Below, in pieces: positions 29,053 to 29,384 of a DNA stretch of 64,000 bases. The position numbers and the translations under genes were made by a program. How positions within the stretch are numbered: position 1 is the first letter of the stretch; each line of letters starts with the position of its first letter. This stretch comes from an uncultured Rickettsiales bacterium (GTDB taxonomy: Bacteria > Pseudomonadota > Alphaproteobacteria > Rickettsiales > SXRF01): positions 8,397 through 72,396 of the forward strand of contig CAZFKP010000007.1 in NCBI GenBank assembly GCA_964518725.1, written 5' to 3'. Under the pieces are notes generated by a model. The model was not told where the DNA came from. It saw nothing but the letters and a program-made list of their open reading frames with translations, and ran no database searches.

Positions 29053-29384
29053 GAACGGGTTTCTGTTACCCGGCACCCGTTCCAATGGCCGTGTTACGAG
29101 CTAGTGCTCGCGTGTGCCGTTAGGCAGCAGCGCGAACAGCTACGACTGCGTTGTCGTTAGCTGCAACAAATGCAACGTTATCGTTAGCATTTATGATTGT
29201 GACCTGGTTACGCCAGTATCATCACGGGCAAAAACAACACCTTTATTACGCTTGTCGAGTGCTAATTCGCCCCCGCCGAAACTCGCTGGTCTTGAGTGAC
29301 CTTGGGTGGAGGCGCCGGGTTCCGCCCCCGGGTCCAATACGTCTATTCTGAGCTGCGTTTATCGCCATAGTCACCGAGGTGACG
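29053..29384 (-). ncRNA. ssrA: tmRNA (SsrA), circularly permuted two-piece alphaproteobacterial type
   Basis: The minus strand shows, in order:
- An acceptor piece ending TTGGAC-CCGGG-GGCGGAA-CCCGG-CGCCTCC-A-CC (3' end about 29305).
- A ~30-nt intervening segment.
- A coding piece starting GGGGGCGAATTAGCACTCGAC at 29274. GGGGGCG pairs with CGCCTCC to give a G3:U wobble, the AlaRS identity element.
- A tag ORF, GCT AAC GAT AAC ... GCT GCT GCC TAA (29188-29120), encoding ANDN...AAA.
- A terminal hairpin, GAACGGGT...ACCCGTTC (29082-29053). Confidence 0.85.

Follow-up and report, generated by a model that had tools for sequence, protein, structure and literature searches.

The minus strand of the analysed window (the whole stretch of 64,000 nucleotides) carries a single, circularly permuted tmRNA gene, ssrA, whose translation probably resumes at the first of two in-frame GCU codons and adds a long tag that contains an old duplicated module. 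The tag reading frame at 29120-29188 (minus strand) is GCT AAC GAT AAC GTT GCA TTT GTT GCA GCT AAC GAC AAC GCA GTC GTA GCT GTT CGC GCT GCT GCC TAA, which translates to ANDNVAFVA-ANDNAVVAVRAAA-stop; on re-reading of the sequence, these letters were identical to those reported in the first-pass annotation.

Identity of the tmRNA Gene

The locus is an alphaproteobacterial two-piece tmRNA, and every testable defining feature of this RNA was found. ARAGORN, named as a check in the first-pass annotation, called a permuted tmRNA ('tmRNA*') with a 22-codon tag, ANDNVAFVAANDNAVVAVRAAA*, at 29029-29396 (minus strand); the Rfam model alpha_tmRNA (RF01849) matched end to end, over model positions 1-355, at 29052-29422 (minus strand) with 205.8 bits (cut-off 50), and the model tmRNA_permuted (RF04321) reached 137.7 bits (cut-off 47) at the same locus. 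Together these matches delimit the circularly permuted two-piece gene at 29029-29422 on the minus strand, the one tmRNA match obtained by covariance-model search in its own genome. The T-arm and the CCA-side acceptor strand precede the 5' acceptor strand, in permuted order and with a spacer between them: the 3' acceptor strand CGCCUCC, with the discriminator A and CCC, ends the acceptor piece (29304-29314, minus strand; sequence and RF01849 alignment), and the 5' acceptor strand GGGGGCG starts the coding piece (29268-29274, minus strand; sequence and covariance-model alignment). The two strands pair with each other, and the third pair is G3:U, the alanine identity pair. The acceptor end at 29304-29307 (minus strand) is encoded as A-CCC, not A-CCA; since CCA is only partly encoded, it must be completed after processing. 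A putative promoter at 29390-29418 (minus strand), read from the sequence as TTGTAA (29413-29418), a 17-nt spacer and TATAAT (29390-29395), aligns with the conserved 5' CUU...UAUAUU of the RF01849 consensus.

The tmRNA gene is flanked by thyX, which is divergent, and by a convergent gene for a MacB/FtsX-type permease. The permease reading frame (27827-29050, plus strand; 407 aa) has a stop codon within or immediately next to the tmRNA's predicted 3' end (29029-29052, minus strand); thyX occupies 29434-30420, with a Thy1 domain from residue 64. In most relatives across the order, sspB is found on the same strand as ssrA and 100-250 nt downstream of it (G018:C12:120293-121235, G021:C4:12538-13385, G007:C3:219646-220506, and many others); in the genus of the window (G000, G001, G002), sspB is located on a different contig, and in the window the MacB-type permease gene is found beside ssrA instead.

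In Caulobacter crescentus, the tmRNA tag is delivered by SspB-alpha to ClpXP. The window's gene resembles the two-piece tmRNA of this bacterium (RF01849) in its permuted order, its G3:U acceptor pair, and the succession of PK1 and UAAAU-GCN; its predicted tag likewise starts with ANDN and ends with AA, and the genome encodes SmpB, SspB (a homolog of 2QAS/2QAZ), ClpX and ClpP. In contrast to the Caulobacter tag, whose string (A)ANDNFAEEFAVAA is confirmed in published papers, the window's tag has 22 codons, not 13, and contains ANDN twice; moreover, an extra hairpin and a closing stem appear to turn helix 5 into a three-way junction that holds the second ANDN. The tmRNA of Escherichia coli differs from that of the window in being a one-piece molecule with four pseudoknots and an 11-residue tag (AANDENYALAA, served by SspB and ClpXP), yet it shares the frame context, an A at position -4. 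An engineered tag, DAS+4 (AANDENYSENYADAS), is man-made but offers a parallel as a lengthened, partly repeated tag that still works with SspB.

The Duplicated Tag Module and Its Distribution

The tag frame falls into a first module at 29162-29188 (GCU AAC GAU AAC GUU GCA UUU GUU GCA, ANDNVAFVA), the first codon of which is the likely resume codon, and a second module that begins with the second ANDN at 29150-29161 (GCU AAC GAC AAC) and continues at 29120-29149 with its remainder and the predicted C-terminal degron AVVAVRAAA to the stop codon UAA (29120-29122; all minus strand). The predicted tag thus ends in ...AANDNVAFVAANDNAVVAVR, with RAAA before UAA and the stop within the loop of helix 5; the tags of the relatives have two small residues ahead of the stop in every case, mostly AA.

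A search of the 64-kb window with the pattern GCNAAYGAYAAY returned two matches only, at 29177-29188 and 29150-29161, where 0.37 would be expected by chance; the two ANDN sites are in the same frame and 27 nt apart, just as they had been described before. The two 27-nt modules are identical at 17 of 27 positions overall, and at 11 of 12 within the ANDN block. Tandem Repeats Finder reported no repeat within 29000-29450, because the repeat is too diverged, or old, and too short. The tandem duplication proposed in the first-pass annotation therefore stands as history but not as a recent event, since modules with 17 of 27 identical positions are old; judged from the module sequences, the doubled ANDN is the product of an old in-frame tandem duplication of approximately the first nine codons.

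Each of 40 relatives searched by covariance model yielded one tmRNA. In a first sample, all 24 genomes of the window's family (f1) had a 22-codon tag with an in-frame double ANDN, of the general form ANDN-x-A-F/L-V/A-A-ANDN-x-V-V/A-...-AA, and a pattern search found the nine-codon form ANDNVAFVA-ANDNxVVxV..AA kept in all 40 sampled f1 genomes, so that both copies are conserved in frame among the relatives whose alignment had been proposed as a check. Several sister families also have the double ANDN, and others a single ANDN, for example ANDNVAPVALKAAA. Across the order, 151 of 401 genomes, belonging to 81 of 189 genera, had a double ANDN in the pattern search; by family, the counts were 40/40 (f1), 38/40 (f13), 17/18 (f9), 8/12 (f14), 0/28 (f23), and 0/39 (f26). 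The tag had previously been regarded as possibly unusual in its length; with such numbers, a doubled ANDN is instead typical of the family and frequent in the order. The gaps between the copies are 9, 12, 15, 18, 21 or 27 nt only, among the matches listed; 19 diverse pattern matches proved to be genuine tmRNA tags, in which the copies are 7, 8, 9, 10, 11 or 13 codons apart, all in frame.

One double-ANDN tag, ANDNFVFANDNNSSANLVAA, comes from a complete genome of 1,176,248 bp (G087/L151), presumably that of Ehrlichia chaffeensis, an identity that would make the order Rickettsiales as defined by GTDB. This tmRNA is similar to that of the window in having two in-frame ANDN copies, the first of which follows UAAGU/UAAAU and is aligned to the consensus resume codon; it differs in its spacing (7 codons, compared to 9 in the window), in its tail, and in residing in a much smaller genome. 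A scan of 185,579 species genomes added at least 50 further tmRNAs with double-ANDN tags of 21-25 residues, all of them, among the matches listed, from MAGs labelled Rickettsiales, Alphaproteobacteria or 'Micavibrio'. Genomes labelled 'Micavibrio' or Alphaproteobacteria (L036, L039, L051, L074, L092, L099, L142, and others) have tags of 24 residues, ANDN-x-A-FVA-ANDN-S-VV-EGEGRIAA; the tail of these tags is acidic and glycine-rich and ends in IAA or KAA. In the same scan, 102 of 110 non-tmRNA matches also had their copies in frame; since these matches are mostly coding repeats, the divisibility of the gap by three is a weak control.

At L167 (G243:C10:72956-72991; genus g103, family f17), the tag is ANDNFAVA-ANDNFAVA-TLKAA, and its 24-nt modules are identical at 22 of 24 positions; 15 of 18 sampled f17 genomes have a single ANDN and lack the doubled form. 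Given this near-identity and the prevailing single copy in the family, the L167 repeat seems to have arisen by a tandem duplication that was both recent and independent, or else by gene conversion between modules. A candidate at L170 (G253:C6:336189-336221), ANDNYNLANDN..., was rejected as a tmRNA; it sits in a long, N/D-rich protein reading frame, which accounts for the single 'match' in family f19. This reading frame occurs in three copies in one genome, the two additional copies being identical, one on C6 and one on C22.

The tmRNA at L025 (1524-1698, minus strand; also G073:C30:45920-45961, family f14, genus g32) seemingly contains three modules, in the order UAAAU-GCU ACU UUA ACA ACA AUG AAA GCA (ATLTTMKA), ANDNAKRIVV, and ANDNYAPVAMAAAA; its resume site is ambiguous, as ARAGORN starts at the first module (32 aa) and the Infernal consensus at the last.

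Across these relatives, the sequence comparisons portray the doubled ANDN as an old and conserved norm in the family that is common in the order and has arisen repeatedly. The doubled tag is a subclass that is common in the order and present in the output of any ARAGORN run; a literature search for double-ANDN tag strings found no paper that contains these strings or discusses the doubled tag, and the tmRNA Website paper does not discuss repeated tags (PMC4131195).

RNA Structure of the Tag Frame

The structure of the tag frame was derived from RNAalifold predictions on 23 relatives, from pair counts with controls, and from the minimum free energy (MFE) fold of 115 nt of the window's own sequence; all three agree, and the MFE fold reproduces the structure of the alignment with z = -3.39. 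The first copy lies in a predicted weak, A/U-rich hairpin around the resume codon (AAAUGC.UAACG AUAA CGUUGCAUUU; 29168-29192, minus strand), which is seen in the RNAalifold prediction, the pair counts and the MFE fold. Covariation links position -2 to the first base of codon 7 (AU in 17 sequences, GC in 5), and this coupling is present in single-ANDN relatives as well; E. coli, too, has a potential weak helix around its resume codon (PMC2481249).

The second copy has a different predicted environment, a three-way helix-5 domain at 29093-29167 (minus strand) that is indicated by covariation and the MFE fold and begins exactly at the boundary between modules 1 and 2. In its closing stem, the last base of codon 9 together with GCUA pairs with U.AGCU after the stop (columns 118/184, 9 double changes); hairpin B is formed by ACGAC and GUCGU (29142-29157), and helix 5 (29105-29138) carries the stop codon in its loop (columns 142/177, 10 double changes). 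Overall, 91% of cells are paired, compared to 23-43% with the partners slid, and the covariation score was reached by 0 of 500 shuffles. A local hairpin for copy 2, CAGCU-A-ACGAC...GUCGU-AGCUG, was considered and rejected, as it left 7 relatives unpaired, compared to 2 for the distal closing stem. In the structural model, the second ANDN is located inside this covariation-supported domain, with its nucleotides paired in helix 3 and hairpin B. The GCUAACGACAAC of copy 2 is invariant in the family at every nucleotide, third codon positions included, which its predicted pairing in the three-way domain would explain.

Partner Proteins and the Second ANDN Copy

The genome encodes SmpB (PF01668, 183.4 bits; G000:C12:51805-52230), SspB (PF04386, 148.3 bits; G000:C22:7297-7695, L031 1465-2055, minus strand), ClpX, recognized by its N-terminal zinc-binding domain (PF06689, 72.8 bits), and ClpP, and thus all four partner proteins. 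The SspB protein aligns with the alphaproteobacterial SspB structures 2QAS, 2QAZ and 2NYS of the PDB; its C terminus ...ISLDAFRKK matches the end of 2NYS, so that LDAFRKK, the putative ClpX-binding tail, is kept. SspB and ClpX contact opposite ends of the tag in model systems, the former binding its N-terminal part and the latter its last residues (PMC3064785). Codon 9 encodes alanine throughout family f1, with all four third bases in use; with the tmRNA-borne alanine ahead of the first copy and this invariable alanine ahead of the second, the full AANDN motif would be present twice (AANDNVAFV-AANDNAVVAVRAAA).

By analogy with these model systems, the most economical reading is that the second AANDN serves as a second or better-spaced SspB-binding site, although we put this forward as a tentative proposal. 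Outside family f1, copy 2 keeps its ANDN by means of synonymous codons, GCA AAC GAC AAT in L017 and GCT AAT GAC AAC in L025 (both sequences came from the covariance-model search), and ANDN is retained with different spacings and different downstream RNA and sequence; these synonymous codons and divergent flanks point to selection on the peptide, and not on the RNA alone. It is conceivable, if doubtful, that the repeated AANDN was selected as such, to provide two adaptor sites on one tag (two SspB grooves or dimers per substrate, or a better spacer of greater length ahead of the ClpX degron). Such selection would explain the independent recurrence of in-frame ANDN duplications as well as their retention, from the family to the order, in Rickettsiales-like bacteria.

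Alternatively, the long tag could be translated with a second ANDN that has no function as a peptide; in this scenario, which we regard as possible but on the unlikely side, the insertion would be tolerated as only the ends of the tag matter, and the f1 nucleotides would be fixed by the RNA three-way junction. The invariance and pairing of every nucleotide of the second ANDN in f1 are consistent with this scenario, as is the decayed second copy (ANNN) in L007; yet the synonymous codons of L017 and L025, the retention of ANDN across varied spacing and downstream RNA, the independent recurrence of the duplication at L167, and the invariable alanine at codon 9 that rebuilds the full AANDN in f1, all speak against a second copy without peptide function. 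The distribution of the adaptor bears on this question as well. SspB was found in 344 of 400 genomes of the order, single-ANDN lineages included; the exception among the large families is f23, where SspB was found in none of 28 sampled genomes (0.7-1.3 Mb) and none has a double ANDN, whereas the other large families all have SspB. The idea that SspB presence tracks the doubled tag was therefore rejected: SspB occurs in single-ANDN families as well. The presence of SspB in both single- and double-tag lineages agrees with a second copy that is idle as a peptide; as a caveat, SspB is near-universal in the order, and for this reason its presence says nothing about the doubled tag. Whichever role the peptide may have, the second copy is, in the structural model, also built into a new three-way RNA junction.

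The Resume Codon

Translation most likely resumes at the first GCU (29186-29188), in agreement with the preference of the first-pass annotation for this codon and a 22-codon tag over an upstream decoy, a choice that the comparative evidence favors. The helix of PK1, UGAU.CUG/CAGGUCA (29200-29221, minus strand; helix 1 of alignment A1), has 93% of its cells paired, and at its column pair 52/74, 14 sequences have CG and 7 have UA; between this helix and the tag frame lies CAAUCAUAAAU. It had been considered that the first copy could be hidden inside PK1; instead, that copy begins, with the first GCU, 12 nt downstream of this helix, which equals the spacing given for E. coli. The U/A-rich context previously pointed out upstream of the first copy is confirmed as U(-5)A(-4)AAU-GCU, where U(-5) and A(-4) (29192-29193, minus strand) are the equivalents of E. 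coli U85 and A86; A is found at position -4 of copy 1 in all 75 distinct relatives, and U or C at position -5 in 73. In E. coli, the frame depends mainly on A86, which precedes the resume codon by four nucleotides and is read in the manner of a ruler, in conjunction with the tRNA-like domain (PMC2481249); the A86U mutant is inactive, and in a KanR assay the -1 triplets GCA and GCU gave no survival, whereas AAU, AGU, GUU and GAU were 90-100% active (PMC2481249, Table 1). The -1 triplet of copy 1 in the relatives is AAU, AGU, GUU or GAU; at copy 2, 58 of 69 sequences have GCA or GCU as this triplet, and position -4 is U in 41, A in 27 and C in 1, with U throughout the window's family. The A86 and -1-triplet rules are E. 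coli rules and are applied here by analogy.

A second line of evidence comes from the evolution of module 1, which appears to be codon-like. In 21 sequences that were found by covariance model and hence not selected for ANDN, the mean entropy of module 1 is 0.17, 0.10 and 0.74 at the first, second and third codon positions; three or four different bases occur at the third position of each of the alanine codons 1, 6 and 9, and the residues Ala/Asn/Asp/Asn/Ala/Val/Ala are kept through synonymous changes, so that the variation is almost entirely confined to third positions. The spacing between the copies differs among lineages by whole codons only, and no in-frame stop was found in the tag frame of about 90 distinct sequences.

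The annotation programs contribute less to the choice of the resume codon. The tag start selected by ARAGORN is a heuristic. The covariance-model alignment suggested as a check in the first-pass annotation does place the consensus resume codon on copy 1, in the window as well as in the G087/L151 gene, but it is not decisive, because the consensus falls on the last of the three modules in L025; the Infernal alignment was rejected as a resume-codon test for this reason. A literature search found no experimental report on the resume codon of any double-ANDN tmRNA.

If translation resumed at the second GCU (29159-29161) instead, an ordinary 13-codon tag, ANDNAVVAVRAAA, would result, and module 1 would be a remnant of the duplication, either a decoy or a leader that is not translated; we consider this very unlikely. 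The second unit by itself has the standard length and form of an alphaproteobacterial tag, and the consensus placement on the last copy in L025 would suit such a start. Further, the 'Micavibrio'-type tags of 24 residues have GUA GCA before copy 2 (codon 8 is GUA) and thus U and A at positions -5 and -4 there too; the argument from upstream context is lineage-specific for this reason. Within the window's family, however, copy 2 has U at position -4, the change at A86 that is inactive in E. coli, and among the relatives it mostly follows the GCA or GCU triplets that are inactive in the E. coli assay; its predicted base-pairing in the three-way junction also counts against a start at this point, although the first GCU itself sits in a small hairpin. 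The synonymous, third-position variation of module 1, the spacing changes by whole codons and the open frame across about 90 distinct sequences are likewise at odds with an untranslated leader. The use of both GCU codons, with a mixture of long and short tags as its product, is suggested by the two similar Ala-Asn-Asp-Asn starts in one frame and by lineages with A at position -4 before both copies, but is highly improbable, as the ruler-like reading of A86 and the tRNA-like domain sets the frame in E. coli (PMC2481249) and only copy 1 has that context in the window's family.

Implications for Tagging and Proteolysis

With a resume codon at the first GCU (29186-29188), the probable working of this tmRNA can be outlined as follows. 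The tmRNA and SmpB would enter stalled ribosomes, where the tmRNA would donate its alanine; after resumption of translation at this codon, the nascent chain would gain (A)ANDNVAFVAANDNAVVAVRAAA. The C-terminal alanines would then direct the tagged chain to ClpXP, and the N-terminal AANDN would represent the kind of motif that is bound by the adaptor SspB. The family as a whole and a large share of the order appear to have retained the in-frame duplication of approximately nine codons, and other genera appear to have acquired duplications of a similar kind anew.

The finding itself is at the level of annotation: the tmRNA of this MAG is normal, and the long tag is normal for its lineage. Nevertheless, a motif that SspB recognizes in model organisms is maintained in duplicate by hundreds of species, among them, it appears, cultured Ehrlichia-type genomes. 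This recurrent and retained doubling of a motif poses a small question in proteolysis targeting, and its answer could be of use in designing degradation tags that depend on an adaptor.
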